Shown: positions 1,764-24,019 of the stretch, in pieces
Numbering within the stretch: the stretch's first letter is position 1
Layout of the letters: each line of letters starts with the position of its first letter
NCBI GenBank assembly: GCA_964389675.1
Contig: CAYMEV010000002.1
Span: 248,001 to 272,709, forward strand
Length of the DNA: 24,709 nucleotides
Source: an uncultured Candidatus Sumerlaeota bacterium
GTDB lineage: Bacteria; CAYMEV01
Reading direction: 5' to 3'
The notes under the pieces: generated by a model
What the model was told of the DNA's origin: nothing
Database searches by the model: none
The model's input: the letters and a program-made list of their open reading frames with translations, nothing else
Translations under genes and position numbers: made by a program

Positions 1764-2645
1764 GTGGAGATCAGATATAAAGAGCCTTTGAAAAAGCATA
1801 CTTCTTTCAGGATTGGCGGCACAGTTCAGGAGATGGTCTTTCCCAGGAATGAGAAGGATATTGCAGAAATTATTGGATGTATAAGGGATAAACCATATTT
1901 TGTAATATCCAATGGCACCAATATATTGTTCAATGATGTCCACTTTAACGGTGTAATAATTAATATGTCAATGTTCGAGCGATTAAAATACCCTGGCAAG
2001 TCAAGGCTCCTTGTATCTTCAGGTACCATGAACAGCGATATAATTGCAGAAGCACGGGAGAAAGGGCTTATTAACCTTACATTCCTGGCAGGCATACCTG
2101 GCAGGTTTGGCGGGGCTGCCTATATGAATGCAGGTGCATACGGGCATTGTATCTCAGAGTATATTAGCAGCATAATGCTTTTTGATCTGAGATCATCAAA
2201 TTTTATAATCCTGGACAGGGATTCGATGAATTATTTTTACAGGGGTCAGGATTTTATAAAGCCGTATCATATTATTCTTTCAGGAATTATTAAACTCGAA
2301 TACGGGGATAAAGCAGAAACTGGAAAACAGATTGAGCTCTGCCTTGCAAAAAGAAAACAGAAGCACCCCCTGGAGAAACCTTCAGCTGGTTCAGTCTTTA
2401 AGAATCCGAAAGGCTGTGTTTCAGGCATCCTTATTGAAGAACTCGGCCTGAAAGGTACTGTATGCGGAGGCGCGCAGATCTCTCAAAAACATGGGAACTT
2501 TATTGTAAACAATGATAATGCTTCATTTGATGACGTCATCAGGCTCGTGGATATGGCCAGAAAAATGGTTCTGAAGGAATATAATATTGAACTCGAAACA
2601 GAAATAAGGATAATAAAAAGTGATATGGATTTTTACCGTTTATGA
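1764..2645 (+). CDS. murB: UDP-N-acetylmuramate dehydrogenase (UDP-N-acetylenolpyruvoylglucosamine reductase)
   Basis: HTSFRIGG, GIPGRFGGAAYMNAGAYG, FYR, PSAGSVFKNP, GGAQISQKHGNFIVN, LETEI motifs; 293 aa short-type MurB; GTG start. Confidence 0.95.
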   Translation: MEIRYKEPLKKHTSFRIGGTVQEMVFPRNEKDIAEIIGCIRDKPYFVISNGTNILFNDVHFNGVIINMSMFERLKYPGKSRLLVSSGTMNSDIIAEAREKGLINLTFLAGIPGRFGGAAYMNAGAYGHCISEYISSIMLFDLRSSNFIILDRDSMNYFYRGQDFIKPYHIILSGIIKLEYGDKAETGKQIELCLAKRKQKHPLEKPSAGSVFKNPKGCVSGILIEELGLKGTVCGGAQISQKHGNFIVNNDNASFDDVIRLVDMARKMVLKEYNIELETEIRIIKSDMDFYRL

Positions 2646-7978: not shown

Positions 7979-10744
7979 ATGGACAGTCAGAAGATCAAAG
8001 AAACATTAAATCTGCCGCGGACAAAATTCCCCATGAAAGCAAATTTATCTGCAAATGAACCCAGGATTCTTGAATATTGGGAAAAAGAGGGGATTTACGA
8101 TAAGATCAGGGAGATCAAGGCAGAATCGCCGAAATTCATACTTCATGACGGCCCCCCATATGCAACTGGGCATATACATATAGGTACTGCACTTAACAAG
8201 GTATTGAAGGATTTTATCGTAAAATATAAAAATATAACAGGTTTTGATGCCCCTTATGTCCCCGGTTGGGATTGCCATGGCCTTCCGATAGAGAATAAAG
8301 TCGAGAAAACAATGAAGGAGAAAAGGGAGGTCCTGTCAAAGCTTGATATCAGAAAAAGGTGCCATGACTATGCGGTATCCTATGTGGATATAATGAGGGA
8401 GGAATTCAAAAGGCTCGGTGTGCTTGGAAGATGGGAAGACCCATATCTTACGCTTAACCCTGTATACGAATCTGTTATACTCAGGGTTCTTGCCTCAGCT
8501 GTCAGACAGGGTTATGTATACAGACAGCACAAACCGATACACTGGTGCATGAGCTGTACTACAGCTCTTGCAGAAGCAGAGCTTGAGTATTATGATGCAG
8601 AGTCAGATTCAATATATGTAAAATTCCCGTTAAGGAAAACCCGTGTAAAAAGCCCGCTGGCCGATTATCAGGGTAATAAAGACATATTTTTCGTAATATG
8701 GACGACGACTCCATGGACAATACCCGCCAATATGGCGCTCGCTGTTCATCCTGACCTGATCTATGGCCTTTATAAAGTCGGAAGCGATTATCTGATAATT
8801 GCAAAGGATATGAAGGACAGCCTTGAAGAGATTCTTCAGGCAGGCGCATTTAATCTTGTCAGGGAATTTGCAGGCAGGGAGATTGAGGGGGATATATCCT
8901 CTCACCCTCTTATGGACAGGGATTCTGCTGTTGTTCTTGCAAACTATGTTACCCTCGAACAGGGATCAGGCATTGTGCATACAGCACCAGGACACGGTCA
9001 GGAGGATTATCAGACAGGTCAGAAATACGGCATTGAAACTGTTTGCCCTGTGGATGAGAACGGGCTTTTTACATCCGAGTTCTCTCCCTGTGAGGGAATA
9101 AATGTCTTTAAGGCAAATCCGGAGATAGTAAAAATGCTCGATGCTAAGGGGATGCTTCTTAAAAGCGATAGGTTTGTACATTCATACCCGCACTGCTGGA
9201 GATGTAAAAAGCCTGTAATATTCAGGGCAACCGAACAGTGGTTTATAAATATTGATCATAATAACCTTCGCCAGAAAGCCCTTGATACAATAAGAAGTGT
9301 AGATTGGATACCCAGCTGGGGCATGAACAGGATCTATAACATGATAGAGAACAGGCCGGACTGGTGTATCTCAAGACAGAGAAACTGGGGAGTCCCTATT
9401 GTAGCCGTAAAATGCAGAGATTGCGGTGAAATATCCATAGATGCTGACCTTATAGATAAGGTTGCAGATATTGTAATGCAGACAGGGATAGGAATCTATT
9501 TTGAAAAGAATATTAAAGAGATTGTCCCGGGTATAAGATGCCCCGTATGCAAATCGGAGAATATTGTGCAGGAAGAAGATATTCTGGATGTATGGTTTGA
9601 ATCAGGGGTTTCACATAAGGCGGTACTGACCACCAACAAAGAGCTGTCATGGCCTTCAGATCTCTATCTTGAAGGCAGCGACCAGCACAGAGGCTGGTTC
9701 AATTCATCTCTTATCCTCTCGCTGATATCAGAAAAGAGCCCTCCTTACAGGCAGGTACTGACTCATGGGTTTGTAGTGGATGAACAGGGGAAAAAGATGT
9801 CCAAATCACTGGGAAATTTTATAAGTCATGAAGATATAATCAAGAAATATGGTGGCGATATACTCAGGATGTGGGTAGCTTCAGAGGATTACAGGGAGGA
9901 CATCAGGGTATCAAATAATATTATCAATAATCTCTCAGAAAGCTACAGAAAGATCAGGAATACATTCAGGTTCGCGCTCTCCAATCTGTTTGATTTTAAT
10001 CCTGATACAGACATGGTAGATATTGAGGATATGACCAGCCTGGATAAATATTATTTTCAGAGATTTCTAAGGATTGTCGCAAAGATAAAGGAAGCATATC
10101 AAAAATATAATTTCCATATTGTAATACAGAATCTTGTAAATTTTGCAAGCATTGACCTGTCATCGCAATATCATGACATAATAAAAGACAGGCTTTATGT
10201 AAGCAAGGCGGACAGCATGGAGAGAAGAAGCACGCAAAGCTGTATCTACAGAATTATAAAAGGGCTGCTTACAATATCTTCCCCTATATTGTCATTTACA
10301 TCAGAAGAAGCATGGCAGTACCTTCCAAGGTCATCAAAAGATCCTGAGAGTGTACACCTGTCCTCCATGGATGAATTTGACTTCTGCTTTGACAGGTCCG
10401 AGCTTTTTGATGAGATTATGAATATCAGGTCAGCTGTTTCAAAATCACTGGAAACACTCAGAAAGAGCAATGTTATAGGGCTTTCCCTTGATTCATCGGT
10501 TGAAATTGCGCTGCCGTCAAGGATTTACAAACAGCTTGTTCCTCTTCAGAACGATCTGAAAGAGATCTTCATGGTATCTGAGATAAAAATCAATGAATCC
10601 ACTGAGCCTGAAAAGGATACTCTGGAAGAAAGCATAACTGTTAAGGCCGGTAAGCATGAAGGGAAGAAGTGCCCCAGGTGCTGGAGGTATTTCTATGAGG
10701 ATCAGGACCTGTGCCCCAGGTGTTCACAGATAGTTGACCTTTAA
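7979..10744 (+). CDS. ileS: Isoleucine--tRNA ligase (type 1)
   Basis: LHDGPPYA, HIGT (HIGH variant), GWDCHGLP, IWTTTPWT, GSGIVHTAPGHG, DWCISRQRNWG, EGSDQHRGWF, KMSKS, C-terminal CPRC..CPRC zinc finger. Confidence 0.98.
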   Translation: MDSQKIKETLNLPRTKFPMKANLSANEPRILEYWEKEGIYDKIREIKAESPKFILHDGPPYATGHIHIGTALNKVLKDFIVKYKNITGFDAPYVPGWDCHGLPIENKVEKTMKEKREVLSKLDIRKRCHDYAVSYVDIMREEFKRLGVLGRWEDPYLTLNPVYESVILRVLASAVRQGYVYRQHKPIHWCMSCTTALAEAELEYYDAESDSIYVKFPLRKTRVKSPLADYQGNKDIFFVIWTTTPWTIPANMALAVHPDLIYGLYKVGSDYLIIAKDMKDSLEEILQAGAFNLVREFAGREIEGDISSHPLMDRDSAVVLANYVTLEQGSGIVHTAPGHGQEDYQTGQKYGIETVCPVDENGLFTSEFSPCEGINVFKANPEIVKMLDAKGMLLKSDRFVHSYPHCWRCKKPVIFRATEQWFINIDHNNLRQKALDTIRSVDWIPSWGMNRIYNMIENRPDWCISRQRNWGVPIVAVKCRDCGEISIDADLIDKVADIVMQTGIGIYFEKNIKEIVPGIRCPVCKSENIVQEEDILDVWFESGVSHKAVLTTNKELSWPSDLYLEGSDQHRGWFNSSLILSLISEKSPPYRQVLTHGFVVDEQGKKMSKSLGNFISHEDIIKKYGGDILRMWVASEDYREDIRVSNNIINNLSESYRKIRNTFRFALSNLFDFNPDTDMVDIEDMTSLDKYYFQRFLRIVAKIKEAYQKYNFHIVIQNLVNFASIDLSSQYHDIIKDRLYVSKADSMERRSTQSCIYRIIKGLLTISSPILSFTSEEAWQYLPRSSKDPESVHLSSMDEFDFCFDRSELFDEIMNIRSAVSKSLETLRKSNVIGLSLDSSVEIALPSRIYKQLVPLQNDLKEIFMVSEIKINESTEPEKDTLEESITVKAGKHEGKKCPRCWRYFYEDQDLCPRCSQIVDL

Positions 10745-10748
10745 TAAT

Positions 10749-11279
10749 ATGCATGGAAATAGAAAAAAATTAGCTGCGTTTATTCTCCTGATCGTATCAA
10801 TAGCATTGTTTGACCAGGTTTCCAAGATCTGGATCATGAGCATTCATGACAGAAGCCCGGAGGCTTTATATAGAGGCATACCTGTAATCAAGGGTTTGCT
10901 GGAAATAACCCTGACCCACAATACCGGGATAATCTTCGGTTTTCTCGGCAATGCCAATAACATGGTAATTCTTATCATAAATTCAGTTATACTGGTTTCT
11001 GTTATGTTTTTTTTATTCAGGGATATTTTAGCCCGGCCTGAACGTTTGGCCTATTTTATAGGTTTCAGCATGATTATTGGGGGAGCCCTGGGAAATATTA
11101 TTGATCGCATAGTGGTTGGCCGTGTCATAGATTTTATAAAATTATATATTACAAGGGATTTTGTCTGGCCCATATTTAATATTGCAGATTCGGCAATTAC
11201 AGTAGGGATTGTCCTTGTATTCATCGACTTAATCTTTCTTGACAGCAGCAGGAGGAAAAATGCACCCGATACTTGTTGA
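10749..11279 (+). CDS. lspA: Lipoprotein signal peptidase II
   Basis: DQVSK, NTGIIFG, GGALGNIIDR, VIDF, WPIFNIADSAI with both catalytic Asp; canonical ileS-lspA order. Start is ATG 10749 or TTG 10734. Confidence 0.95.
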   Translation: MHGNRKKLAAFILLIVSIALFDQVSKIWIMSIHDRSPEALYRGIPVIKGLLEITLTHNTGIIFGFLGNANNMVILIINSVILVSVMFFLFRDILARPERLAYFIGFSMIIGGALGNIIDRIVVGRVIDFIKLYITRDFVWPIFNIADSAITVGIVLVFIDLIFLDSSRRKNAPDTC

Positions 11280-12039
11280 TTTAGGCTTTATAAGGATTCA
11301 TACATATGGTTTCTGCATTTCACTTGGTGTAGTATTTGCAATCTATCTCGCGATCAGGCTTGGCAGAGTTTATAATGTGAGCCAGGACTTCATACTTGAT
11401 CTGTCCATTAAACTGCTCATATCTGGAATTATTGGCTCAAAAGTCCTTTATCTGCTGGTATATTTCAGAGATTACCTTGATGATCCAGTCCGGATAATAA
11501 CGGAATTCAGATCAGGATTTGTTTTTTTGGGAGGGCTTATCCTTGCTTTCTATGCAGGGTACAGGCATGTAAAAAAAAGCCGCTATGACATTAAAGTGCT
11601 TTTTGATGTGTTTGCACCTGCTATACCGCTGGCGCATGCTTTTGGAAGGCTTGGCTGTACAATGGCCGGCTGCTGTTATGGGAAGGTTGCAGAATATGAT
11701 GCATTCTATACACTGCGTTTCTGCCATCCTGAAACTGCTGCATATCCGCGATGCCGTCCGCTTATAGCAACCCAGCCGATAAGCTCCATATTTTTGTTTC
11801 TTCTTTCACTGTTTATTGTTTTTTTGTTCTATAAATGGAAAAAACGGCCACCAGGCACGCTTTTATATGTTTATGCCATGAATTATTCAGTTTTCAGGTT
11901 CACAATAGAATTTTTCCGGGGAGATTACAGGGGGGGGATACTGTTCTTTTCAACATCTCAGATATTATGCCTGATCATTTTCCCCTCAGTTCTGTACCTT
12001 CTTCTCAGATCGATAAAAAAAAAGAAACAAGATGAGTAA
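11260..12039 (+). CDS. lgt: Prolipoprotein diacylglyceryl transferase
   Basis: MHPIL...IHTYG, GRLGCTMAGCCYG, YSVFRFTIEFFRGD, STSQ motifs. AGGAGG RBS directly before ATG 11260 favours this start over 11239. Confidence 0.92.
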   Translation: MHPILVDLGFIRIHTYGFCISLGVVFAIYLAIRLGRVYNVSQDFILDLSIKLLISGIIGSKVLYLLVYFRDYLDDPVRIITEFRSGFVFLGGLILAFYAGYRHVKKSRYDIKVLFDVFAPAIPLAHAFGRLGCTMAGCCYGKVAEYDAFYTLRFCHPETAAYPRCRPLIATQPISSIFLFLLSLFIVFLFYKWKKRPPGTLLYVYAMNYSVFRFTIEFFRGDYRGGILFFSTSQILCLIIFPSVLYLLLRSIKKKKQDE

Positions 12040-13024
12040 CCTGTCCGCCGGCGAATCAATAGCCCTGAAAAGAAGAATAGAAGAGATTGACCTTGCCGGG
12101 AAAAGGCTGGATATAGTGCTTGTTCATCTTTATCCTGTGATCTCAAGGCATTTTGCCCAGGCATTAATAAGCGAAGGTTTCGTTTATGTAAATAAAGAGA
12201 AGGCATTGCGCAAATCAACCAGGCTGAAGTATGGCGATATGATTGAGCTGCTGGAGTATAAAAAGGGATGTGAGGAACAGCCTGCCCCAAAAAAGATAAA
12301 TCTAAGGATCTTATATAATGATGATGATATATTTGCTGTGGATAAGCCTTCAGGTCTCACTGTCCACCCTGGGGGAGGCAATTATCAGGATACGCTTGTA
12401 AATGCACTGCTTTATTACAAGGAAAGGTTTAATCTCTCATTATCGGATATTCAGGGAATTGACAGGGCTGGTATTGTGCACAGGCTTGACAAGGATACCT
12501 CGGGTGTTATGATAATTGCAAAGAATAATGATTCACACAGGAAACTGCAGCATCTTTTCAGAGAACGCAAGGTAAAGAAGGAATATATTGCCTTAACATA
12601 CGGTGAGATGAAGAAGGATACCTATGATGTCGATATACCTGTAGGCAGGGATAAAAAGAACAGGCTTATATTTTCGCCGAGAAGCGAAAATCCAAAGGAA
12701 GCACTGACAAAGATAAGGGTTTTTACCCGCTTCAATGGCTACAGCCTTATAAAAGCGCACCCCCTGACAGGGCGTACACATCAGATAAGAGTCCATCTTA
12801 AGGAATTGGGGCACCCTGTGGTCGGAGATATTATTTACTCCCAGAAAAAAACAGGAAAAATCCTTAATCTTTTTGCAGGGGATAAAACAAATCCAAGATT
12901 AATGCTTCACAGTTTTAAGATTTTGTTTCCTCATCCTTATAAAAATGATATTATAATAATTAAAGCAAATGTTCCCTCTGATTTCAGGAAGTGTTTTAGG
13001 ATACTAAGAACATATAATGGTTAG
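12032..13024 (+). CDS. rluD: RluA/RluD family 23S rRNA pseudouridine synthase
   Basis: N-terminal S4-like RLDIVL...SR, VDKPSGLTVHP, GIVHRLDKDTSG (catalytic Asp), TGRTHQIRVHL...HPVVGD, RLMLHS. Confidence 0.9.
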   Translation: MSNLSAGESIALKRRIEEIDLAGKRLDIVLVHLYPVISRHFAQALISEGFVYVNKEKALRKSTRLKYGDMIELLEYKKGCEEQPAPKKINLRILYNDDDIFAVDKPSGLTVHPGGGNYQDTLVNALLYYKERFNLSLSDIQGIDRAGIVHRLDKDTSGVMIIAKNNDSHRKLQHLFRERKVKKEYIALTYGEMKKDTYDVDIPVGRDKKNRLIFSPRSENPKEALTKIRVFTRFNGYSLIKAHPLTGRTHQIRVHLKELGHPVVGDIIYSQKKTGKILNLFAGDKTNPRLMLHSFKILFPHPYKNDIIIIKANVPSDFRKCFRILRTYNG

Positions 13025-14270
13025 ATTATTAATAGTTGATGATTCAGATATTATCAGGAAACAGCTCAGGAAGTTTCTTGAAAGCAAAAGGGGATATTCT
13101 GTCGAAGAGGCCTCGGACGGGCTTGAAGCCATCCAGGTATTGAAAGCAGATCCGGACTTTGATATTATCGCCCTGGATGTTGAAATGCCCAGGCTTAATG
13201 GCCTGGAGACTCTCAGAGGCATATCTTCAATGGATATTGATGCAACTCCGGTCATGATAACATCCAGGAGTGATTTCAATACTGTCATACAGGCAATACG
13301 GCAGGGGGCATATGACTATATTACAAAACCAATTGATTTTGAGAACCTTTTGATCATTATCGACCGTACCCTTGAAAAGCGTGCGCTTGAAAAGGAAAAC
13401 AAGAGGCTGATAGATGACCTGCAGAAGATGAACAGCAACCTTGCACAGCTTGTCAGGCAGAGAACCAAGCACCTTGCTGAGGCTGAACAGAAATCCAGGA
13501 CATATGCCAATCAGCTCGAAAAGGCTTATGAAGAGCTTAAGAGCCTTGACAGGATGAAGGGTGATTTCATTTCTCTTGCCTCTCATGAATTGAGAACACC
13601 GCTGGTGCTGATTAAGGGCTACAGCGAGATATTGCTGAGAAAGAGGTATGGTGATATCCCGCATCAGGTTGAGAGTGCGCTGAAGATACAGAATGATAAT
13701 ATAGAAAAATTGAGCGAGATCATTAATGAAATACTGATGATAAATAACCTTGAAGTACTTGAGAATATATATAAGGAAGAAAACCTTGACATTAATCCGG
13801 TGCTCGTTGAAGCTTATGAATCACTCAAAGAATTTATTAACCTCCGCAACCAGGTATTCAAGTCTGATCTTTATGAAAAGCCTTTGCTGGTCAAAGGCAA
13901 TAATAAACTGCTTTTCTATGCTGTCCATAACCTGATAATAAATGCCATTAAGTTTACCCCTGATGGTGGTGTCATTACTCTTAGGTCTGCATTGAAAAAC
14001 TCTGAGAATAGGCCCATGGCAATAATTTCAGTATCTGATACAGGTATAGGAATACCGGAAGATGCTCTGGAAAAAATCTTTACACCCTTCTATGAAGTGA
14101 AAGATATCAAGTATCACAGTTCAGGCAAGTTCCAGTTTCTGTCAGGTGGGCTTGGAGTAGGGCTCAGTATCTCCAAGAGCATCATATCCCAGCACTCAGG
14201 GCAGATTGCCGTTGAAAGCTCTCTTGGAAAAGGAAGTACCTTTTATATATCCCTGCCTCTGGTTTATTAG
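13017..14270 (+). CDS. Cytoplasmic hybrid response regulator / sensor histidine kinase (REC-coiled coil-HisKA-HATPase)
   Basis: REC: IVDDS, phospho-acceptor LDVEMP, TKP. H box SHELRTP, N box NLIINAIKFT, G1 DTGIGI, F box IFTPF, G2 GLGVGL. No TM segment. Confidence 0.93.
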   Translation: MVRLLIVDDSDIIRKQLRKFLESKRGYSVEEASDGLEAIQVLKADPDFDIIALDVEMPRLNGLETLRGISSMDIDATPVMITSRSDFNTVIQAIRQGAYDYITKPIDFENLLIIIDRTLEKRALEKENKRLIDDLQKMNSNLAQLVRQRTKHLAEAEQKSRTYANQLEKAYEELKSLDRMKGDFISLASHELRTPLVLIKGYSEILLRKRYGDIPHQVESALKIQNDNIEKLSEIINEILMINNLEVLENIYKEENLDINPVLVEAYESLKEFINLRNQVFKSDLYEKPLLVKGNNKLLFYAVHNLIINAIKFTPDGGVITLRSALKNSENRPMAIISVSDTGIGIPEDALEKIFTPFYEVKDIKYHSSGKFQFLSGGLGVGLSISKSIISQHSGQIAVESSLGKGSTFYISLPLVY

Positions 14271-14309
14271 ATATAAGGGAATTAGCTGCAGGATCACGCC
14301 TTATAAATA

Positions 14310-14337
14310 TTGACATTGTTTTCTATAGAAATAGGAT
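14310..14337 (+). promoter_or_regulatory. Putative sigma70 promoter for activase-reductase/lnt pair
   Basis: TTGACA (14310-14315), 16-bp spacer, TAGGAT (14332-14337) in the 94-bp intergenic gap. Confidence 0.5.
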
Positions 14338-14364
14338 AAATTCATAAAAATTTATAAAACAGGC

Positions 14365-17300
14365 TTGCAAAAATATATGTATGCTGGAATTGATGCAGGA
14401 TCTATTTCATTTAAGATAGTGATCCTTAAAGATAATGGTGAATATCACAGGGAAACAATATTTCACCGTGGAGAGCCTGTCAGGGTGTTTAATGGTCTCC
14501 TTGAGCGGTTTAACCTGTCAGATGAATTGAACAATATGATGATAAACGGCAGATATGGAGCCCTGCTTTCCAATCTGCACAAGATTGCCCTTGTCGATCC
14601 TGTCAGGGCCCTGGTAAAAAACCACTCAGGCGGCATAAGCAGGATCATTGATATTGGAGCATCAAAGCTATGCATGATCGAGCTCAAAAAAGGAGCTTTC
14701 CAGAGGCTCAATACCAACTCATTATGTGCTTCAGGGACTGGAGCTTTTCTTGATCAGCAGATGAAAAGAATGGGCATAGGCTATAAGATGCTGAAAGACA
14801 TCAGATTTATTGAAAATCCTCCATCCATTGCTACCAGGTGTGCAGTTTTTGCCAAGAGTGATCTTATTCACAGACAGCAGCAGGGATATTCGATAGAAAT
14901 GCTGTGGAACGGATTAGTAAAGGGTATGGCAGAATCTGCATTTTCCACCCTTTTCAGGGGGAAGAGCAACTGCGGTGATGTAATGCTTATAGGGGGCCTG
15001 ACAAGGAATAAAATATTCATAAAGTACCTTGAGAGGCTTCTGCAAACGTCGAAACTTTCTGTATCTCCTGATTCATGCTATTATCAGGCAGAATCTAACC
15101 TGAAATACAGAATGCTTGACAGGGGTTTTAATAAATATGCAGATATCTATATTATTGACAAGAAAACCGAGGCACCTCTTAAAATTGAGAAAACCAGAGG
15201 GCATGATCATACCTGGGAAATCGATTGCTATGGAAATGAGGTCGATCTGTTCAGCATGAAAAAGGGGACAGATGGGGTTTATATCGGTGTGGACATTGGT
15301 TCTACAAGCACCAAGCTGGTAGCAGCGGACGCAGAAGGTACAATCCTTTTTGGATTATATACAAGAACAGGGGGAAAGCCTTTAGAAGCATTCAAGAATC
15401 TCTTAAGGGGCATAAAAAGGCTGGATGATGAATATTCCCTTAAGCTGAGGATATCAGGGTTTGGAACTACAGGCAGCGGAAGGAAACTTGTCGGTAAATT
15501 TGCCGGATCAGACCTTATAGTTAATGAAATAACAGCACATCTCAAGGGTGCCATCAAGGAATACCCTGATGTAAGGACCATTTTTGAAATAGGGGGCCAG
15601 GATTCAAAATATATCTCCGCTGAAGATGGGTGGATGAAAGATGCTAATATGAATTATGTCTGCGCTGCAGGTACAGGCTCTTTTATAGAGGAACAGGCCT
15701 CAAACCTTCAGATAAAACTGAATGATATAGAAAATATATGCAGTGGTGTAAGCCCGCCTGTTTCAAGCGACAGGTGCACAGTGTTCATGGAGCAGGATGC
15801 AACACAGCTTCTGATAAACGGCTTTACAAAAGGCGAGGTCATGGCTTCAATGCTGTATTCTGTATGCAAGAATTATCTAAACAGGGTTGTTCAGGCACGG
15901 CCCGTCATAGACCCGGTTCTGTTTCTGGGAGCAACTTCCAAGAATAGAATGCTGGTCAGGGCTTTTGAGAATATTCTGGGCAGAAAGGTCCATACATCAT
16001 TATACGGCCATATAACAGGGGCAATAGGAGTAACCGAAATGCTCAGGAAAAATCCGCCGTCCCGGACAAAGTTCAGGGGACTGGGGATATCCGGGGCCGA
16101 TGTCGATATTACGGAGACGAACTGCAGTCTGTGTAATAACCGGTGCAGGATTACTATTATGAATATTAATTCAACAGGGGAAAAAATAAGCTGGGGATAT
16201 ATGTGCGGTAAAGAGCCTGAAGCAAAGTCAGCAAAAAGGATCAATTCTCTCAGGTATATTGCTAAGCTTGAAGGCATTCTGTTTCCAGAATCAAAAAAAT
16301 CCAGGAACGATTACAGGTTATATTATCCAAGAGCCCTGCAGTTCTTCTCTCATTTTGCATTATGGAGGAAATTTTTCGACACCCTGGATATTGACCTGTT
16401 GCCATCAGAACCTACTGGACAAAGAGTTGCATCACTTGCAAGAGAATATTCCATATCAGACTTCTGTTATCCCCTGAAGATATCCATAGGGCATATCATA
16501 AGCCTTATCGCCGATAACAGGATGCCTGTGTTTTTGCCTTACAATATACAGGATACGCCAAACCCTGTCACAAAAAAAAGCCATTTCTGCCCGATAAGCC
16601 AGGGTTTTCCATCGATTGTCAAAAATACCCTGGATTATAACAGCATCCATGACTATCAGCTTATAAGCCCTGTTATTGATCTTGAAAGGAACAGCCAGCA
16701 TAATTCTGATAATCTTTACAGAGCGCTTCATGAGCATTTCGCAGTATCCAGAAAGGACTGCAGGAAGGCATTTGATCTGGCGCTTGAATATCATCAGTCC
16801 TTAAACAGGACAAAATTTGAAACTGCTCTTAAAATCAATAATGATATCAGGAAGAAAAACAGGGAATGTATTGCATTGCTTGGAAGGCCCTATAATATTC
16901 TCGATAAGGTTCTAAATCTGGATCTCCTGAAGAGCATAGGCCAGTCAGGTTTTGAAATAATACCGGGAGACCTTCTTCCTGTAAGGCGCTGTGACCTGAA
17001 CCCCGACCTTGGCGATATTTACTGGTCATATGGCCAGCACCTGGCTGCATGTGCGGAATTTATAAAAAAGGAACCGGGCATGTTTGCCATATACCTTACA
17101 AATTTCAGCTGCGGCCCTGACTCATTCTTATTAAGCACAATTGAGAAAATTATGGGCAGGAAGCCCTTTTTAATCCTTGAGCTGGATGAACTTGGAGGAA
17201 ATGCAGGTTATATCACGAGATTAGAAGCATTCTATGACCGGATTGAGAATTATACTAAAAACCCTGAGAAGAATAGGTCCGGAGAATCAATATGCCTGAA

Positions 17301-18462
17301 AATGGATATAAAAAATTCAATAAATGGCCACAGGGTCTATATACCCCCGATCCATCCATTCGCAACAAAGCTTATAAGCCATGCATTCAGGGCTTTCTCC
17401 GTGGATGCCGTTCCAATGCTGAAGGAAGATATGCAGACATATCTGCTGGGCAGGTCAAAAGTAAGGGGATCTGAATGCATGCCGGCTGCATCCACTATAG
17501 GGACTTTCATGCATTATTTAAATGGCAACGGCAGCAAACCAGGGCTTCTTTTTATGCCGTGTACAAGCGGCCCATGCAGGTTCGGGCAGTACGCAAGGCT
17601 TCATGACAGCATTATTAAGTCAGATAATATGAAGGCATCCATCTTTTCTCCATCAAGTGAGGATGATTACAGGAGCATAAAAGGCAGGCTTCGCGTACAC
17701 CTTATCAGGAGTGTTATCCTGTCCGACCTCCTGACAAAACTGGGCTGTGCTCTAAGGCCGTATGAGAACAATCCAGGTGATGTTGACTCTATAATAAAAA
17801 GATATATTAATATCCTTTCAGAAGCCCTTGAACAGAAAAAAGGCCTGCTGAAGATACTAAAAGGACTGAAAAATGAGCTGTGTTCACTCGGGATTGACCG
17901 GAATAATCCTAAAAAGCCGCTGATAGGGATTGTCGGCGAGATATATGTCAGGAATTCACCTTTTTCAAATTCCTTTCTCATAAGAAATATAGAAAAAAAC
18001 GGGGGCGAGGCATGGATGACCTCTTCTATTGAATGGCTTTATTACACATCATCACTTTTATATGAGAATAATAAGAGCATGGGGCATTATTTTAAGAACA
18101 GGCTTATAAAAATGTATCTGGCTTATCTTGAGAACAGTATATTCAGTATTTTCTCAGATTTCATAGACCACAGGACTGAGCCTGATATAGATGATATTCT
18201 GCAGGCAGGACAGGAATACATACCCCTTGAGTTTACAGGCGAGACCATCCTGACGGTAGGCAGGGGTGTCCATTTCATAAAGCAGAAAGCGGATATGATT
18301 GTCAATGTCGCTCCGTTCTCATGCATGCCGGGAGCCATCAGCAGTGCAATTTTCAGAAATATTTCCAGGTTTTACGGTGTTCCTATCATATCCATGTTTT
18401 ATGACGGGGAGACAGATTTTAATGACCTGCTGTCCACATATATAAGCAATCTTAATTGTTGA
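14365..18462 (+). CDS. Fused acyl-CoA dehydratase activase-related protein (2x BadF/BcrA ASKHA activase + DUF2229 + HgdD-like reductase); PlsA/Ger-type plasmalogen/ether-lipid synthase architecture
   Basis: Activase 1: GIDAGS, CASGTGAFL, RCAVFAKSD. Activase 2: GVDIGSTSTK, TTGSGR, NEITAH, EIGGQDSK, CAAGTGSF, RCTVF. Then CxxCxNxC, FCYP, FCP, LGRPYN, FSCGPD, TRLEAF, ECMP, GPCRFGQY, GIVGEIYVR, PFSCMP. Start TTG 14365 or ATG 14377. The domain call is firm; the lipid function is inferred. Confidence 0.88.
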   Translation: MQKYMYAGIDAGSISFKIVILKDNGEYHRETIFHRGEPVRVFNGLLERFNLSDELNNMMINGRYGALLSNLHKIALVDPVRALVKNHSGGISRIIDIGASKLCMIELKKGAFQRLNTNSLCASGTGAFLDQQMKRMGIGYKMLKDIRFIENPPSIATRCAVFAKSDLIHRQQQGYSIEMLWNGLVKGMAESAFSTLFRGKSNCGDVMLIGGLTRNKIFIKYLERLLQTSKLSVSPDSCYYQAESNLKYRMLDRGFNKYADIYIIDKKTEAPLKIEKTRGHDHTWEIDCYGNEVDLFSMKKGTDGVYIGVDIGSTSTKLVAADAEGTILFGLYTRTGGKPLEAFKNLLRGIKRLDDEYSLKLRISGFGTTGSGRKLVGKFAGSDLIVNEITAHLKGAIKEYPDVRTIFEIGGQDSKYISAEDGWMKDANMNYVCAAGTGSFIEEQASNLQIKLNDIENICSGVSPPVSSDRCTVFMEQDATQLLINGFTKGEVMASMLYSVCKNYLNRVVQARPVIDPVLFLGATSKNRMLVRAFENILGRKVHTSLYGHITGAIGVTEMLRKNPPSRTKFRGLGISGADVDITETNCSLCNNRCRITIMNINSTGEKISWGYMCGKEPEAKSAKRINSLRYIAKLEGILFPESKKSRNDYRLYYPRALQFFSHFALWRKFFDTLDIDLLPSEPTGQRVASLAREYSISDFCYPLKISIGHIISLIADNRMPVFLPYNIQDTPNPVTKKSHFCPISQGFPSIVKNTLDYNSIHDYQLISPVIDLERNSQHNSDNLYRALHEHFAVSRKDCRKAFDLALEYHQSLNRTKFETALKINNDIRKKNRECIALLGRPYNILDKVLNLDLLKSIGQSGFEIIPGDLLPVRRCDLNPDLGDIYWSYGQHLAACAEFIKKEPGMFAIYLTNFSCGPDSFLLSTIEKIMGRKPFLILELDELGGNAGYITRLEAFYDRIENYTKNPEKNRSGESICLKMDIKNSINGHRVYIPPIHPFATKLISHAFRAFSVDAVPMLKEDMQTYLLGRSKVRGSECMPAASTIGTFMHYLNGNGSKPGLLFMPCTSGPCRFGQYARLHDSIIKSDNMKASIFSPSSEDDYRSIKGRLRVHLIRSVILSDLLTKLGCALRPYENNPGDVDSIIKRYINILSEALEQKKGLLKILKGLKNELCSLGIDRNNPKKPLIGIVGEIYVRNSPFSNSFLIRNIEKNGGEAWMTSSIEWLYYTSSLLYENNKSMGHYFKNRLIKMYLAYLENSIFSIFSDFIDHRTEPDIDDILQAGQEYIPLEFTGETILTVGRGVHFIKQKADMIVNVAPFSCMPGAISSAIFRNISRFYGVPIISMFYDGETDFNDLLSTYISNLNC

Positions 18463-18475
18463 GCGGTATTATAGC

Positions 18476-19984
18476 ATGAAAAAGAGAATAATATATTATC
18501 CGTTTTTGATATTATCGGCCATAATTCTTGGATTATCAAGAGAAAGCCTTATGATGTCCTTTTTTTCATTTATATCAATAATCCCCCTGATATATGTCTG
18601 CAGTTTTGAGAAATCTCTAATGGCCGGTTTTTCATCAGGCCTGGTTTACGGATTTGCATACAATATCATTCAGGTGCACTGGATCATTAATACCATGGTA
18701 AATTATGGAGGTTTATCCATTATCGAAGCCGCCATTGTATTGGCCGTGCTATGCCTTTATTTAGGGCTGTTCTGGGGTATATTCGGAATTATAGTCAATT
18801 ACACTGAAAAAAGAAACTGTCCGTTTTTTATTCTTCCGGGGATATGGGTGATCATTGAATATATAGTTACTTATCTCTTTACAGGGTTTCCATGGACGCT
18901 TGCAGGCTATAATGTCAGCAAAAACCTCATTATTATACAAACCCTTGATATAGGTGGCATATACCTGCTATCTTTTCTTCTGATCAGCATAAATATTCTA
19001 ATATATAATATAATTATGCGCAGGTCGAGGGCCTTAAGTATTATGCTTCTAATATTGATTGTATCATCTGTAAGCATTTATGGATTTTTTCGAATTGGCC
19101 AGCTTAAAAACCGGTATGAAGAAAATAAAAAGAGGGCTGTCCTTATTCAGCCAAATATAGATCAGGGCGAGAAAATGGATTTCAGCCGAAGAACTGCCAT
19201 ATTGAACAGGATGCTGGATTATCTGGATGAGATAGATACAGAAGGCACAGAGCTGGTTGTTTTTCCTGAGACTGCATTCAATACCGGAATAAGGGACAGC
19301 ATATATTTTTATAAAATTTCTGAATGGGTGAGCAGGAATCATATACCTGTCATTACCGGTACCGTCGATCATGTACGCACCAAAGACGCGTGTTTCAGCT
19401 TTAATGCCAGCCTTTTCATAGATATCGACCATTACAGTTTCTACCATAAGAATCATCTTGTACCTTTTGGCGAGTACCTTCCCCTTTCGAATTTCCCGAT
19501 CCTGAAAGAACTGAGGAATATTATACCTGCAGATGTCGACAGGGGAGAAGAAAGGACTTTTTTTATCGATAAGGATGGATTTACCATTATTACCCCTATA
19601 TGCTTTGAAATAATATTCCCTGAAGAGATTGCAGGCTGGGCCAAAGACAAAGCTGACCTTATAATAACCCTGACCAATGATGCATGGTTTGGAAGGACAA
19701 AGGCATCCTTCCAGCACTTTGACAAGGTGGCATATAGAGCTGTTGAGAACAGAATACCATCAATTATGCTGGCTAATACAGGCGTTTCAGGTTTTGTGGA
19801 CATTACTGGAAAAAGATATGGCATGACCGGCATTTTCACAGAATCGGTCGTATATGATGAGATAAATGTACATGAACAGAAAAAGACGATCTGGAACAGG
19901 ATATATCGATATAATCTGTTTTTCTATATTATTCTTACTGCAATTCTGCTATATGCAGGGATAAGAAAAAGAAGCATTGAATAA
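18476..19984 (+). CDS. lnt: Apolipoprotein N-acyltransferase
   Basis: N-terminal TM bundle, TGFPW, IQPNI, catalytic triad in FPE / KNHLVPFGEY / ICFEI, TNDAWFG, RAVEN, ANTGVS. Confidence 0.95.
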   Translation: MKKRIIYYPFLILSAIILGLSRESLMMSFFSFISIIPLIYVCSFEKSLMAGFSSGLVYGFAYNIIQVHWIINTMVNYGGLSIIEAAIVLAVLCLYLGLFWGIFGIIVNYTEKRNCPFFILPGIWVIIEYIVTYLFTGFPWTLAGYNVSKNLIIIQTLDIGGIYLLSFLLISINILIYNIIMRRSRALSIMLLILIVSSVSIYGFFRIGQLKNRYEENKKRAVLIQPNIDQGEKMDFSRRTAILNRMLDYLDEIDTEGTELVVFPETAFNTGIRDSIYFYKISEWVSRNHIPVITGTVDHVRTKDACFSFNASLFIDIDHYSFYHKNHLVPFGEYLPLSNFPILKELRNIIPADVDRGEERTFFIDKDGFTIITPICFEIIFPEEIAGWAKDKADLIITLTNDAWFGRTKASFQHFDKVAYRAVENRIPSIMLANTGVSGFVDITGKRYGMTGIFTESVVYDEINVHEQKKTIWNRIYRYNLFFYIILTAILLYAGIRKRSIE

Positions 19985-20260: not shown

Positions 20261-20321
20261 CATTAAATAATCAAAAGAATCCACCTGCCCAGATAAAAAA
20301 ATTATGGAGGTGACGAGACTG

Positions 20322-21656
20322 ATGATTAGCAGATCATTAGCGCTGAATAAGCTTGCAAAAAGGATTGACCCGGATATAGTCAACAAAAACTGGTATGACT
20401 GGAAATGGCATATCAGGCACAGCATAAAGGATATTGAATCATTTGAGAGACTGCTGGATATAAAGTTTTCAAAACAGGAGAGGGAATTTTACCAGAATAC
20501 GTGTAAAAAGTTCCCTATGTCGATTACCCCTTATTATCTATCTTTGATCGATGTCGGGAATTATAAGCATGATCCGGTATTTAAGCAGTCTTTTCCTTCA
20601 CGGGAAGAGCTGATAATAAACAGGTATGATATGAAGGACCCTCTCTCAGAGGATAAAGACAGCCCTGTTGAAGGAGTTACGCACAGGTATCCTGACAGGG
20701 TGCTTTTCCACATATCAAATGTCTGTTCAATGTACTGCAGGCATTGCACCAGGAAAAGGAAGGTCGGGGATATTGATTATATACCCGACAGGAAAACTAT
20801 TAAAAAGGGGTTAAGGTATATAAGGAACACACCGCAGGTCAGGGATGTCCTTCTTTCAGGAGGGGACCCTCTCATGCTCTCGGACGAATATCTTGAATGG
20901 ATTTTACAGGAATTAAAATCTATCCCTCATGTTGAGATAATCAGGATTGGAACCAGAATGCCAGTTGTCCTTCCATACAGGATTACTGATGAACTGGTAG
21001 ACATGCTTAAGAAGTATAATCCACTCTGGCTTAATACTCATTTTAACCATCCGAGAGAGATTACCTCATCATCAAAAACAGCTCTCAGGAAGCTTGCTGA
21101 TGCAGGGATCCCACTTGGAAACCAGTCTGTCCTCCTGGCTGGAATAAATGACTGCCCAAGAATAATGAAGAAACTTGTACATAAACTTGTTCAGAACAGG
21201 GTCAGGCCGTATTATCTGTATCAGTGCGACCTGTCAGAAGGCCTGGAGCATTTCAGGACGCCTGTTGGCAAAGGAATTGAGATTATAGAGAATCTGATAG
21301 GGCATACAACAGGATTTGCAGTTCCGACCTATGTCATTGATGCACCGGGTGGGGGCGGGAAAATCCCCATTATGCCGAATTACCTGATAAGCTGGTCAAC
21401 CAATAAGGTTGTCCTCAGAAATTTCGAGGGGGTAATAACAACATACAAGGAACCTGATTCATATGAGCCCATCTTTTGCGACAGAAAATGCGATGAGTGT
21501 GCACTGCCGCTGAATACTGAGGAAGCAGAAGAATCAAAGGCTATCGGCATAAGCCAGCTTTTATCCGATTATGATAATACCATATCGCTGGTACCCCAGG
21601 ATAATGAAAGGATAGGCCGGAGGGACGATCAGAATGATGACGGGGAATCAGCCTGA
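20322..21656 (+). CDS. ablA: Lysine 2,3-aminomutase (radical SAM/PLP), AblA/KamA type
   Basis: [67 protein letters not shown] (PLP Lys), C-terminal Cys cluster. GGAGGTG RBS (20306-20312) supports ATG 20322 rather than 20304. Confidence 0.95.
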
Positions 21657-22497
21657 CAGTATGGATTATATTACGGAAATAGGAGCTGGAAGCATTATAC
21701 AGCATGGCAGGTATAATGCCAGGATTTATCTGATGAAGCTGTTTTTTGATGATTATCCCTTAATTATCAAGGAAATGGAACGAATAGCTGTGAGGGAAAA
21801 TTATGGGAAAATAGTTGCAAAGATACCTTCATGGGCCTATGACGGTTTTATCAGTTCCGGATACAAAAAAGAGGCTATAATTCCCAGGTATTTCCTGGAT
21901 GGAACAGACCTTTATTTTGTATCAAGGTTTCTTGATAAGAGTAGAAGCAAGGATCCAAGAACAGAGTATTGCGACGATGTGATAGAAACCTCTCTTGCCA
22001 AGGATAAAAACAAAAAAGCAGCCTGCCTGGGCACAAAATATCATTATAAGATCCTGGAAGACAATGATGCTGATGAGATAGCAGCTATATACAGGCAGGT
22101 ATTTAAAACATACCCCTTTCCGATATTTGAGAAAGAATATATCCTTAAAACAATGAGGGATAACCTTATCTATTTCGGGATTTTCAATGGAAACATGCTT
22201 GTATCGGTATCATCCACTGAAATAGATAAGGAAAACAATAGCGTGGAGATGACTGATTTCAGCACACTGCCTGAATACAGGGGAAATGGTTTTGCGGGCT
22301 ATCTTCTTTTTAATATGGAAAATGAAATGAAGAAAAGAAATATCAGGACCTTTTATACTATTGCAAGAAGCATGTCCTACGGTATGAATATAACCTTTGC
22401 AAAAAACAGTTATATCTACAGCGGCAGGCTGATAAACAATACAAACATAAGCGGGAGCATTGAAAGCATGAATATATGGTACAAGGTCATTGTTTAG
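21634..22497 (+). CDS. ablB: Beta-lysine N-acetyltransferase (GNAT)
   Basis: [81 protein letters not shown]; overlaps ablA by 23 bp. Confidence 0.92.
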
Positions 22498-22762: not shown

Positions 22763-24019
22763 ATGAAACAGAATGTGTTAAGAGACCTGCAATACTATAA
22801 GTTCTGTGCTTATGGTTTTTTAAAGAACTTAAAGTTCTTTGATCCATTTTTTATCCTTTTCCTGATTTATAAGGGACTGCCGTTTATACAGATAGGGCTC
22901 CTTTATTCGCTGAGGGAAGTACTGGTAAATATATTTGAAATTCCTTCGGGGTTTTTTGCCGATGCAATGGGAAGAAAGGGTGCCATGATATTCTCCTTTA
23001 TATCATATATAATATCTTTTGCCGGATTTTATTTCAGCAGGGATTTTTACACGCTTGCCTTTGCCATGGCCTTTTTTGCACTCGGGGACGCCTTCAGGAC
23101 AGGAACTCACAAGGCTATGATATATGAATACCTCAGGATAAAAAATATACAGGACCAGAAAGTGCATTATTACGGGCATACAAGGAGTGCCTCGCTTATA
23201 GGCACAGCTCTTTCAGCCCTTATCGGCAGTGCAATAGTCTTCTATACCAGAAGCCTGGAGACTATTTTTCTCTTCTCAATAATACCATATGTCCTTGGAT
23301 TGCTGCTGATCATGTCATATCCGGGAGCCCTGAATGGCGATATAAAAAAACTGGAGCTGAGGAAGATCATTGACAGGTTTGCACTGATCCTGAGTGAGAT
23401 AAAAAAGGCATTCAGCCGGAGAAAAACCTTTATGACCCTGGCTAATACAAGTATGTTCAGCGGATATTACCAGGCAGGCAAGGATTATATTCAGCCCATA
23501 TTGAAAAGCTTTGCACTGGCTATGCCTGTTTTTTTTAATCTCGAAAATGAACAAAGGACAGCATTGGTCATAGGCACAACATATTTTCTTCTCTATCTGC
23601 TGACATCTATTATAACCCGGAATGCGGGAACCTTTGCTGACAGGATAAAAAAAATATCAGTCTCGCTTAATATTACTTTTATATTAGGATTTACCGGTGG
23701 AATTATATCAGGTATTTTTTATCACTATAATATGTTTTATCTTTCAGTGATATTCTTTATATTAATAATATTTAATGAAAATTTGAGAAGGCCTATAGGT
23801 TTAGGGTACTTTACTGAAATACTTGACAGCAGAATATATGCTACAGCATTATCTGTTGAATCCCAGATGAAAGCATTATTCGCCGCTGGCTTTGCTTTTC
23901 TGCTTGGTTTATTTGCCGAATTGTTTGATGTAGGCATAGCCATTATTATGACAGCAATAATCGGAATACTGCTGTTCCCTGTATTAAGAATCAGATCAGA
24001 TCAATCTGAGAATATATAG
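22763..24019 (+). CDS. MFS transporter
   Basis: About 12 hydrophobic segments; EIPSGFFADAMGRK motif A; GDAFRTGT; second-half FADRI. Confidence 0.88.
   Translation: MKQNVLRDLQYYKFCAYGFLKNLKFFDPFFILFLIYKGLPFIQIGLLYSLREVLVNIFEIPSGFFADAMGRKGAMIFSFISYIISFAGFYFSRDFYTLAFAMAFFALGDAFRTGTHKAMIYEYLRIKNIQDQKVHYYGHTRSASLIGTALSALIGSAIVFYTRSLETIFLFSIIPYVLGLLLIMSYPGALNGDIKKLELRKIIDRFALILSEIKKAFSRRKTFMTLANTSMFSGYYQAGKDYIQPILKSFALAMPVFFNLENEQRTALVIGTTYFLLYLLTSIITRNAGTFADRIKKISVSLNITFILGFTGGIISGIFYHYNMFYLSVIFFILIIFNENLRRPIGLGYFTEILDSRIYATALSVESQMKALFAAGFAFLLGLFAELFDVGIAIIMTAIIGILLFPVLRIRSDQSENI

Follow-up and report, generated by a model that had tools for sequence, protein, structure and literature searches.

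The window, the whole stretch of 24,709 nucleotides analysed here, comes from an uncultured marine-sediment bacterium and contains a same-strand string of genes, most of them housekeeping genes for the envelope and translation, in which a large activase-reductase gene (hereafter plsAR) is followed directly by lnt. The PlsAR protein is an ordinary family member with the build of PlsA, PlsR and Ger, and we consider it likely that its lineage-specific juxtaposition with lnt indicates no dedicated functional coupling. A coupling of ether-lipid synthesis to lipoprotein maturation, which a first-pass annotation of this DNA had proposed, was not supported, since the linkage is not conserved, the neighbours are not shared among homologous loci and collinearity with a congener is not specific to this gene pair.

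Open reading frame calls, together with Pfam and NCBIfam profiles, gave the order ileS, lspA, lgt, an RluD-like gene, a receiver-histidine kinase gene, plsAR and lnt, all on the plus strand. The string opens with ileS for isoleucine-tRNA ligase (7979-10744; TIGR00392 at 923.1 bits, cut-off 621.4), followed by lspA for lipoprotein signal peptidase II (10734-11279; PF01252, E 1.7e-34), comfortably above its equivalog cut-off (TIGR00077 at 107.8 bits against 73.95), and by lgt for prolipoprotein diacylglyceryl transferase (11239-12039; PF01790, E 2e-44), which passes its own narrowly (TIGR00544 at 122.0 bits against 118.9). Downstream are genes for an RluA-family (RluD-like) pseudouridine synthase (12032-13024; TIGR00005 at 273.9 bits, cut-off 192.7; PF00849 and an S4 domain) and for a soluble histidine kinase with receiver, HisKA and HATPase_c domains (13017-14270; PF00072, PF00512, PF02518). 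The fused PlsA/PlsR/Ger-family gene occupies 14365-18462 and is separated by a 13-base spacer (18463-18475) from lnt for apolipoprotein N-acyltransferase (18476-19984; PF20154 and PF00795; TIGR00546 at 287.3 bits, cut-off 132.9). All of the curated cut-offs were passed, which identifies the genes of the string, and the order ileS-lspA-lgt-rluD is a variant of one that is common.

These calls bore out the first-pass annotation on the placement of lspA, lgt and lnt on one strand within about 9 kb, with profile matches at or near the positions it gave, and on the 13 bp that separate the stop codon of plsAR (18462) from the start codon of lnt (ATG, 18476). For lspA it was right about the gene and less so about the start, as the open reading frame begins at 10734 and the proposed 10749 is a later in-frame ATG, which may nevertheless be used. 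An assembly artefact at the plsAR-lnt junction was ruled out, as a run of another study yielded a 306-base contig that covers 18282-18587 with no differences (X3, record 14).

The maturation enzymes themselves appear conventional. Lnt combines the LNT_N membrane domain, a CN_hydrolase domain and the motifs of the Glu-Lys-Cys triad. When it is aligned with E. coli Lnt (5n6h, E 1.5e-35), the Glu of PE(T/S), the Lys of KNHLVPFGE and the Cys of ICxE all match; the triad is numbered E267, K335 and C387 in PMC10313180. All three enzymes exceed their NCBIfam equivalog cut-offs and the Lnt triad is conserved, so that they resemble the canonical E. coli Lgt-LspA-Lnt pathway as described in PMC10313180 and would be expected to carry out ordinary three-step lipoprotein maturation. 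Lnt draws its acyl group from the sn-1 ester of a glycerophospholipid (PMC10313180), as the first-pass annotation had also stated.

The difference from the canonical E. coli system lies in the gene arrangement. The lspA-lgt pair is common (adjacent in 12 of 39 unrelated genomes), whereas in none of the 33 unrelated genomes with lnt did that gene lie within 10 kb of either member of the pair. The clustering of all three genes within 9 kb is thus unusual. One such coincidence is to be expected when very many windows are scanned.

The plsAR open reading frame encodes 1365 residues and the database copy of the protein has 1361, which fits the ATG at 14377 as the likely start. Two successive ATPase domains (1 and 2) lead into a Cys-rich linker, which is followed by DUF2229 (Red1) and then by an HGD-D-like module (Red2). 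Two BcrAD_BadFG activase domains lie in the one chain (PF01869 at 192.7 bits over two stretches; the N-terminal copy alone at E 1.4e-20; TIGR00241 at 219.8 bits, cut-off 125.4), and matches to PDB sequences included 1hux, 9gai_D and 4eht. DUF2229 follows the ATPases at residues 655-870 (PF09989 at 145.6 bits, cut-off 29.4). The match to PF06050 was weak (E 0.0018; 18.4 bits, under the cut-off of 28.4), and the second reductase/dehydratase module was counted as present because the fold matches. An AF2 model of the last 726 residues (pLDDT 90.7, pTM 0.91) predicts that the C-terminal half folds like the catalytic subunits of benzoyl-CoA reductase and 2-hydroxyacyl-CoA dehydratase (BCR/HAD). The ten best PDB matches in the fold search were all HadBC, DCCP, BzdNO or MbdON chains, with 3o3m, 7yyl_A, 8s2r/8s02 and 9gai_A/B at the top, and the best matches to these catalytic chains had a probability of 1.00 with target-normalised TM values of 0.39-0.51. 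Up to rank 17, 13 of the 15 listed matches belonged to these four at probabilities of 0.98-1.00, the remaining two being DCCP at 0.93 and iron nitrogenase at 0.63. The two PF01869 domains, PF09989, the weak PF06050 match and the BCR/HAD-like fold together supported the PlsA/PlsR/Ger architecture proposed in the first-pass annotation.

The cysteines of the protein are strongly conserved. In the numbering of the 1361-residue form, C117/C155 and C429/C467 in the ATPase domains and C583, C586, C590 and C610 in the linker are invariant in 17 sequences, and C697, C738, C912, C1034, C1067 and C1316 in the reductase half are invariant both in these 17 and in 42 sequences. We infer that they are Fe-S cluster ligands, and the assignment of each to a particular cluster is putative. 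Such a layout matches the description of fused PlsA, in which Act1-Act2-Red1-Red2 modules carry conserved [4Fe-4S] cysteines, a build common to PlsA/PlsR and to the protein described here (PMC12838417). The gene, at 4,098 bp, is similar in total size to the C. perfringens two-gene region CPE1194-1195 (4,287 bp) and the fused genes (4,248-4,920 bp); single-gene hosts include Enterococcus faecalis, Lactococcus cremoris and Bifidobacterium longum subsp. suis (PMC12838417). Ger, represented by Thermotoga maritima Tmari_0479 and Desulfatibacillum alkenivorans SHJ90043, is described as a 'BBD' core of two PF01869 domains and PF09989 followed by short, weakly matched PF06050 reduction/dehydration stretches, and both the core and the weak PF06050 match are shared here (PMC13159169). 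In facultative anaerobes a TetR/AcrR regulator is reported upstream (PMC9702350), which is absent here, where a receiver-histidine kinase gene stands instead. A position next to lnt, as found here, is not reported for PlsA/PlsR in the available text of the cited papers.

By analogy with the characterised members of the family, the most likely mechanism of PlsAR is as follows. Its two fused HgdC-type ATPase domains would spend ATP to drive a low-potential electron into the Fe-S clusters of the two BCR/HAD-like catalytic modules. Under anoxic conditions these modules would then reduce a diacyl glycerolipid at its sn-1 acyl ester. The product would be an alk-1-enyl (plasmalogen) or alkyl ether lipid.

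A protein of the same superfamily could also carry out some other ATP-driven Fe-S reduction or dehydration on another substrate, and not act as a glycerolipid ester reductase, which we judge unlikely. Ether formation by the subfamily to which PlsAR belongs is a presumed activity: a tree of 84 proteins has at least three deep subfamilies, and it implies paralogy, because Bacteroidota and Thermodesulfobacteriota are spread over several of them. Two of the sampled genomes (G025 and G014) each have two near-full-length PlsAR-like matches, and the tree includes no characterised member. The weak PF06050 match points the same way. However, the tested members, from Bacillota, Actinomycetota, Thermotogota and Desulfobacteraceae, all make sn-1 ether bonds according to PMC12838417 and PMC13159169, the four-module build is complete with its cysteines invariant, and PlsAR is the sole copy in its genome.

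Conserved linkage to the maturation genes was surveyed at 98 loci, comprising the best 80 of 599 confirmed genome matches and 18 metagenome contigs; 78 of the 98 had at least 1.5 kb of downstream sequence, and neighbours were detected by tblastn and additionally by phmmer on 2823 ORFs. A PlsAR homologue adjoined lnt only at L025 and L104, both of which carry the sequence of the congener G001. Outside these two records lnt was adjacent at 0 of 96 loci, lying 8 kb off at one of them (L048, from Planctomycetota), and neither lgt nor lspA was found near a homologue at any of the 96 by tblastn or phmmer. None of lnt, lgt and lspA was found at the loci of the 11 nearest clade members (43-50% identity). 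From genome size alone, roughly 0.5-1 such adjacencies would be expected per 100 loci. No other family recurred: the 86 downstream neighbours fell into 132 Pfam families with at most four members each, and the 83 upstream neighbours into 101 families with at most six, the maximum being Radical_SAM. The PlsA/PlsR/Ger family is thus without a conserved gene neighbourhood among the loci surveyed, and linkage to the maturation genes, which the first-pass annotation had proposed to survey, did not recur there in independent lineages. In the sample of 39 unrelated genomes, a PlsAR-like match was present in 14, of which 11 also have lnt; the two genes were linked in none of the 11, the sole pair on a common contig being about 1.95 Mb apart.

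The congener, the one related genome compared from a phylum-level lineage represented by two genomes in the collection searched, retains the plsAR-lnt adjacency although the proteins have diverged (56-65%). However, its gene order agrees with that of the window from end to end (16 of 17 ORFs), so that retention of the adjacency says little about this gene pair in particular. Identity was 87.5% for the histidine kinase, 80% for ileS and 56-69% for lspA, lgt, RluD, PlsAR and Lnt. A third organism probably has the adjacency too, as a PlsAR homologue (P0004, 60%) and a Lnt homologue (P0123, 52%) share the same longest contig figure of 31,646 bases. A second lineage with it is possible, as P0039 (PlsAR, 39%) and P0175 (Lnt, 33%) share a figure of 6,561 bases.

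Transcription signals were of little help. A sigma-70-like promoter match (TTGACA-16-TAGGAT, 10/12) stands at 14310-14337 in the 94-106-nt gap upstream of plsAR, and the consensus scan of the window found no terminator-like site between it and lnt, as the first-pass annotation had noted. Both features were reproduced, yet the scan carries little weight because its counts were near shuffled levels, with 51 promoter-like sites against 38.7 +/- 6.5 in shuffles (barely commoner) and 11 terminator-like sites against 10.1 +/- 3.4. A weaker match (9/12) at 18362-18389 could equally serve lnt alone. A single plsAR-lnt transcript, or read-through into lnt, is plausible because the genes lie on the same strand 13 bp apart with no terminator-like site in the spacer. 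Read-through by itself would not make a system.

These observations bear on a reading in which plsAR and lnt, perhaps with the whole string from lspA, form a co-transcribed, lineage-specific functional operon. It would either balance the sn-1 ester donor pool of Lnt against ether-lipid content or let Lgt transfer a 1-O-alk(en)yl-2-acyl-glyceryl group from ether phosphatidylglycerol to give ether-anchored lipoproteins. The short spacer, the presence of the adjacency in the congener too and probably in the third organism, and the requirement of Lnt for an sn-1 ester (PMC10313180) are in its favour, as is the unusual clustering of lspA, lgt and lnt, each with one above-cut-off match in the 3.57-Mb, 93.8% complete genome. 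Additionally, our literature search found no paper on Lgt or Lnt in membranes rich in sn-1 ether lipids, or on ether-anchored bacterial lipoproteins. Against it stand the lack of adjacency outside the congener records, the nearest clade members included, the lack of any conserved neighbour, the unlinked genes in the 11 unrelated genomes and the window-wide collinearity with the congener. Moreover, an encounter of Lgt and Lnt with ether lipids concerns every ether-lipid producer that has these enzymes and not specially this locus. We therefore regard such an operon as quite improbable, and a fortuitous, lineage-specific arrangement of an ordinary family member next to lnt as the probable one.

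In its boldest form the reading would join lspA, lgt, lnt and the only ether-lipid enzyme in one regulated unit, Lgt using 1-O-alk(en)yl-2-acyl-phosphatidylglycerol to build an ether-linked glyceryl-cysteine anchor while co-expressed Lnt secures N-acylation as sn-1 ester donors are consumed. This form, which is very doubtful, would give bacteria their first counterpart to the archaeal lipoproteins anchored by archaeol. The nearest precedent for an ether anchor is Haloferax volcanii, whose lipoproteins are anchored by thioether-linked archaeol through AliA/AliB and are the only ether-lipid-anchored lipobox proteins that we found in the literature (PMC12462473). That system differs in its enzymes, has no Lgt homologue, uses isoprenoid diether lipids and belongs to another domain of life (PMC12462473). 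The biochemical question raised by the first-pass annotation is nonetheless a real one: how Lgt and Lnt behave in membranes rich in sn-1 ethers, and whether bacterial lipoproteins can carry ether anchors. It is general to ether-lipid producers, given that most of the unrelated genomes with a PlsAR-like match also have lnt, and it is better suited to a cultivable organism than to argument from the plsAR-lnt adjacency.

The locus adds a PlsA/PlsR/Ger member and a complete Lgt-LspA-Lnt set to its sparsely sampled lineage. PlsAR and the adjoining Lnt differ in their nearest relatives, judging from sequence identities: the nearest PlsAR clade includes one Bacteroidales-labelled MAG, while identity among Lnt relatives falls to 37% and then stays at 30-36% through the rest of the matches listed, those named at 30-37% being Thermodesulfovibrionia, Nitrospirota, Thermodesulfobacteriota, Desulfobacterium and Aminicenantaceae. 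A presence signal for PF09989 was obtained in the control genomes of T. maritima, L. lactis, B. thetaiotaomicron and T. thermophilus. The PlsAR clade may already figure among the Ger homologues of PMC13159169 (table S21, fig. S14).

The stretch from 7979 to 19984 of the window (G000:C2:248001-272709; genome G000, 3.57 Mb in 58 contigs, 93.8% complete) consists of seven plus-strand ORFs that overlap or are separated by short gaps. With Pfam and NCBIfam in agreement, these were assigned to ileS (7979-10744), lspA (10734-11279; 107.8 bits, equivalog cut-off 73.95), lgt (11239-12039; 122.0 bits, cut-off 118.9), an RluA-family (RluD-like) pseudouridine synthase (12032-13024), a soluble kinase with receiver, HisKA and HATPase_c domains (13017-14270), a 1365-aa PlsAR-like ORF (14365-18462) and lnt (18476-19984; 287.3 bits, equivalog cut-off 132.9). 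The three lipoprotein maturation genes lspA, lgt and lnt each have one above-cut-off match in the genome. The Lnt protein matched E. coli Lnt (5n6h) at an E-value of 1.5e-35, and the residues matched include Glu, Lys and Cys from the catalytic motifs, numbered E267, K335 and C387 in the accessible text of PMC10313180. The stop codon of the PlsAR-like ORF lies 13 bases before the ATG of lnt, and this junction is spanned without differences by an independent 306-base contig (X3, record 14) from a sequencing run of another study. The ORF calls, the Pfam and NCBIfam assignments and the bridging contig thus confirmed the arrangement described in the first-pass annotation, in which all three maturation genes share a strand with the large gene placed directly before lnt. 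The database copy of the large protein has 1361 residues, which is consistent with a start at the ATG at 14377.

The same annotation had proposed a PlsA/PlsR/Ger-like domain architecture for the large protein, and this was borne out by Pfam, by published domain builds and by fold matches. Pfam identified two BcrAD_BadFG ATPase domains and a DUF2229 domain, together with a weak HGD-D match (E 0.0018) in the last 495 residues. This agrees with two published architectures: that of the Thermotoga maritima and Desulfatibacillum alkenivorans Ger proteins, described in the available part of PMC13159169 as 'BBD plus short D/H stretches', and that of the fused PlsA proteins known from Enterococcus, Lactococcus and Bifidobacterium, described in the available part of PMC12838417 as Act1-Act2-Red1-Red2, with fused genes of 4,248-4,920 bp. 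A structure model of the last 726 residues, built from a 42-sequence alignment, reached a pLDDT of 90.7 and a pTM of 0.91. Its best PDB fold matches were all catalytic subunits of benzoyl-CoA reductases or 2-hydroxyacyl-CoA dehydratases, namely 2-hydroxyisocaproyl-CoA dehydratase (3o3m), the double-cubane cluster protein (7yyl_A, 6eno), BzdNO (8s2r, 8s02) and MbdON (9gai), and the ATPase part matched HgdC (1hux), MbdQ/P (9gai) and HadI (4eht) by sequence. In the alignments, a cysteine pair in each ATPase domain, a four-cysteine linker and six cysteines in the reductase half are invariant. Because domain build, fold matches and invariant cysteines agree, assignment of the protein to the PlsA/PlsR/Ger family is well supported by architecture and predicted fold. 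By the mechanism of the family, the protein would carry out ATP-driven electron injection and would then reduce a diacyl glycerolipid at its sn-1 ester bond, giving either a vinyl or an alkyl ether.

The substrate was considered separately, by means of a FastTree phylogeny of 84 proteins. Excluded from it were L104, which duplicates the sequence of locus L025, the four loci L074, L084, L089 and L097, whose matched span contains stops, and loci with a match span below 3,900 bases. The tree contained at least three deep, well-supported subfamilies, several of which included both Bacteroidota and Thermodesulfobacteriota. Among the sampled genomes, G025 and G014 each carried two near-full-length PlsAR-like matches. 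Functional divergence among the subfamilies is possible and, because of their depth and these signs of paralogy, the ether-forming activity of the window protein's own subfamily is something that we infer. The same features favor an alternative in which the protein acts on a different substrate, and we consider this alternative unlikely for a protein with the build and predicted fold of the family.

The window protein paired with that of L025 with a support of 100. Both fell into a 12-row clade (support 99) containing the nearest PlsAR relatives, whose other rows are one MAG labelled Bacteroidales and nine contigs from metagenomes; L114 attached to this clade as a 13th row. Searches by tblastn found no lnt near these 11 relatives other than L025 (43-50% identity). 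The relatives of Lnt differ from those of PlsAR. Among the matches listed, their identity runs down to 37% and thereafter lies at 30-36%, and those named at 30-37% belong to Thermodesulfovibrionia, Nitrospirota, Thermodesulfobacteriota, Desulfobacterium and Aminicenantaceae.

Whether the neighborhood recurs was assessed in a family that comprises 5,705 proteins at E <= 0.001, of 7,999 candidates scored. The survey covered 98 loci: the 80 top-ranking ones among 599 confirmed hits in contigs from one genome per species, and 18 metagenome contigs picked by patterns specific to the large protein, with at least 1.5 kb available downstream in 78 loci and upstream in 78. Neighbors were searched with the window proteins by tblastn, and by phmmer against the full set of 2,823 ORFs with a length of 100 aa or more. 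Across the 98 loci, lnt immediately behind the homologue was found solely in L025 and L104, both of which are identical in sequence to the congener G001, and lgt and lspA were likewise found near homologues in these two loci only. A single Planctomycetota locus (L048) carried lnt at 8 kb from the homologue; with about 20 kb per locus and genomes of 2-5 Mb, approximately 0.5 such co-occurrences would be expected by chance, versus the one observed. A phmmer match in L030 (E 0.0078, 121-aa ORF) was dismissed as noise. No common Pfam family was found downstream (132 families in 86 neighbors, the top family in 4) or upstream (101 families in 83 neighbors, with Radical_SAM at the top in 6). The receiver-histidine kinase gene was rejected as a conserved partner, its tblastn matches being generic two-component domains (Response_reg in 4/86 downstream and 2/83 upstream neighbors). 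Some of the upstream Radical_SAM genes might encode membrane-spanning-lipid synthases, as reported with Ger in the accessible portion of PMC13159169.

The lineage of the source organism is very sparsely sampled, and its phylum is represented in the collection by G000 and G001 only, from one genus; a baseline was drawn from 39 unrelated genomes, each from a different family, that share no rank below domain with these two. Adjacent lspA and lgt, in this order, occurred in 12 of them (G008, G009, G014, G015, G019, G023, G025, G026, G032, G033, G037 and G038), and the lspA-lgt portion of the window locus is ordinary. The lnt gene was present in 33/39 genomes, none of which showed it at 10 kb or less from either lspA or lgt, many assemblies being fragmented so that linkage may be hidden; the closest approach was 20 kb, in G017. 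PlsAR-like matches at E <= 1e-50, some of them only partial, were detected in 14/39 genomes, 11 of which also carried lnt. In none of these 11 were the two genes linked; they lay on separate contigs or, in G028, 1.95 Mb apart. Organisms with both a PlsAR-like enzyme and Lnt are therefore common, and the genes are unlinked there.

In G001, the gene order ileS-lspA-lgt-rluD-kinase-plsAR-lnt is kept, with protein identities of 80, 58, 69, 60, 87.5, 65 and 56% from ileS to lnt. Because 16 of 17 ORFs across the entire 24.7-kb window are collinear with G001, the kept plsAR-lnt adjacency is part of general synteny between the congeners. The segment downstream of lnt is a breakpoint, as a 913-aa P-type cation ATPase lies right behind lnt in G001 (L025:15581-18322) and is absent there in the window, and the MFS gene of the window (22763-24019) has no match in the G001 contig. 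We also observed in G001:C1 an exact tandem duplication of 24,571 bases at 100% identity (45425-69995 and 69986-94556; L123-L128), encompassing the whole ileS-to-ablB block. This is probably an assembly artefact of the MAG, and it leads to doubled gene matches in searches of G001.

Protein searches yielded two further candidate adjacencies. The PlsAR homologue P0004 (60%) and the Lnt homologue P0123 (52%) agree in the length of their longest contig, 31,646 bases, and the linkage is probably shared by this third organism. Similarly, P0039 (PlsAR homologue, 39%) and P0175 (Lnt homologue, 33%) from JGI agree in this length at 6,561 bases; these could be a second independent lineage with the linkage, or the agreement could have arisen by chance among 120 x 120 pairs. 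By tblastn, no lnt was found near the closest surveyed relatives of P0039 (L027, L116, L004 and L026; 45-49%), and no Lnt counterpart to the PlsAR homologue P0003 (34,249-base contig) was present among the matches listed.

With respect to transcription, a sigma-70-like match (10/12) lies at 14310-14337, although the sigma-70 consensus may not be that of the host, and a second one (9/12) at 18362-18389, immediately upstream of lnt. The consensus scan gave no terminator-like hairpin between the large gene and lnt. Promoter-like sites in the window numbered 51, with 38.7 +/- 6.5 in shuffles; for terminator-like sites the figures were 11 and 10.1 +/- 3.4. Being near shuffle expectation, these scans were discarded as evidence for or against co-transcription, which, judged by spacing alone, is plausible for plsAR and lnt.

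Altogether, we consider it likely that plsAR-lnt is a lineage-specific and probably fortuitous juxtaposition within a long string of genes on one strand. A functional plsAR-lnt operon confined to the window's lineage would accommodate the short spacing and the order kept in G001, an order that is part of general synteny, and we regard it as quite improbable. The coupled ether-lipid and lipoprotein maturation system proposed in the first-pass annotation is not supported, as the neighborhood survey shows no recurring linkage of plsAR to lnt, lgt or lspA outside the G001 records, save for L048 at 8 kb. Its boldest version, ether-anchored lipoproteins, appears very improbable. The accompanying statement that Lnt needs the sn-1 acyl ester of a phospholipid as donor is sound according to the accessible text of PMC10313180.

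In the literature searched, as far as its accessible text extends, no description was found of bacterial ether-anchored lipoproteins or of ether-lipid synthesis tied to Lnt. The nearest precedent is archaeal, namely Haloferax lipoproteins with thioether-linked archaeol, formed via AliA/AliB (PMC12462473, accessible part). Two other papers were set aside on their accessible portions: PMC12345273 deals with an acetylated heptaprenylglyceryl donor and N-acetylation in Bacillus, ether anchors not being its subject, and in PMC11878027 'plasmalogen' and 'diacylglyceryl transferase' are confined to the reference list. A further one, about pulmonary surfactant in lung fibrosis, was considered off-topic by its title and the opening of its abstract. 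The underlying biochemical question is worthwhile, yet independent of the window locus.

Other genes of the window were also considered. The kinase at 13017-14270, which is without a sensor or membrane domain, is 87.5% identical between G000 and G001 versus 56-69% for LspA, Lgt, RluD, PlsAR and Lnt, and by this comparison is under much stronger constraint than these proteins. Further upstream, a B12-binding radical SAM protein (2642-4033), an FAD oxidoreductase (4102-5430, minus strand) and a radical SAM/SPASM protein (5414-6421, minus strand) received no equivalog assignment. The first of these gave sub-threshold matches to HpnJ (97.9 bits, cut-off 577.6) and to TIGR04072, 'lipid biosynthesis B12-binding/radical SAM protein' (90.9 bits, cut-off 360), and the three genes may serve to modify lipids or cofactors. 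Marine sediment metagenome runs contain the DNA of the window. Within 20304-22497 lie ablA, for lysine 2,3-aminomutase (TIGR03820, 788 bits, cut-off 525), and ablB, for beta-lysine N-acetyltransferase (TIGR03827, 327 bits, cut-off 205), which together provide for synthesis of the osmolyte N-epsilon-acetyl-beta-lysine. This pair is in keeping with a saline sediment habitat.
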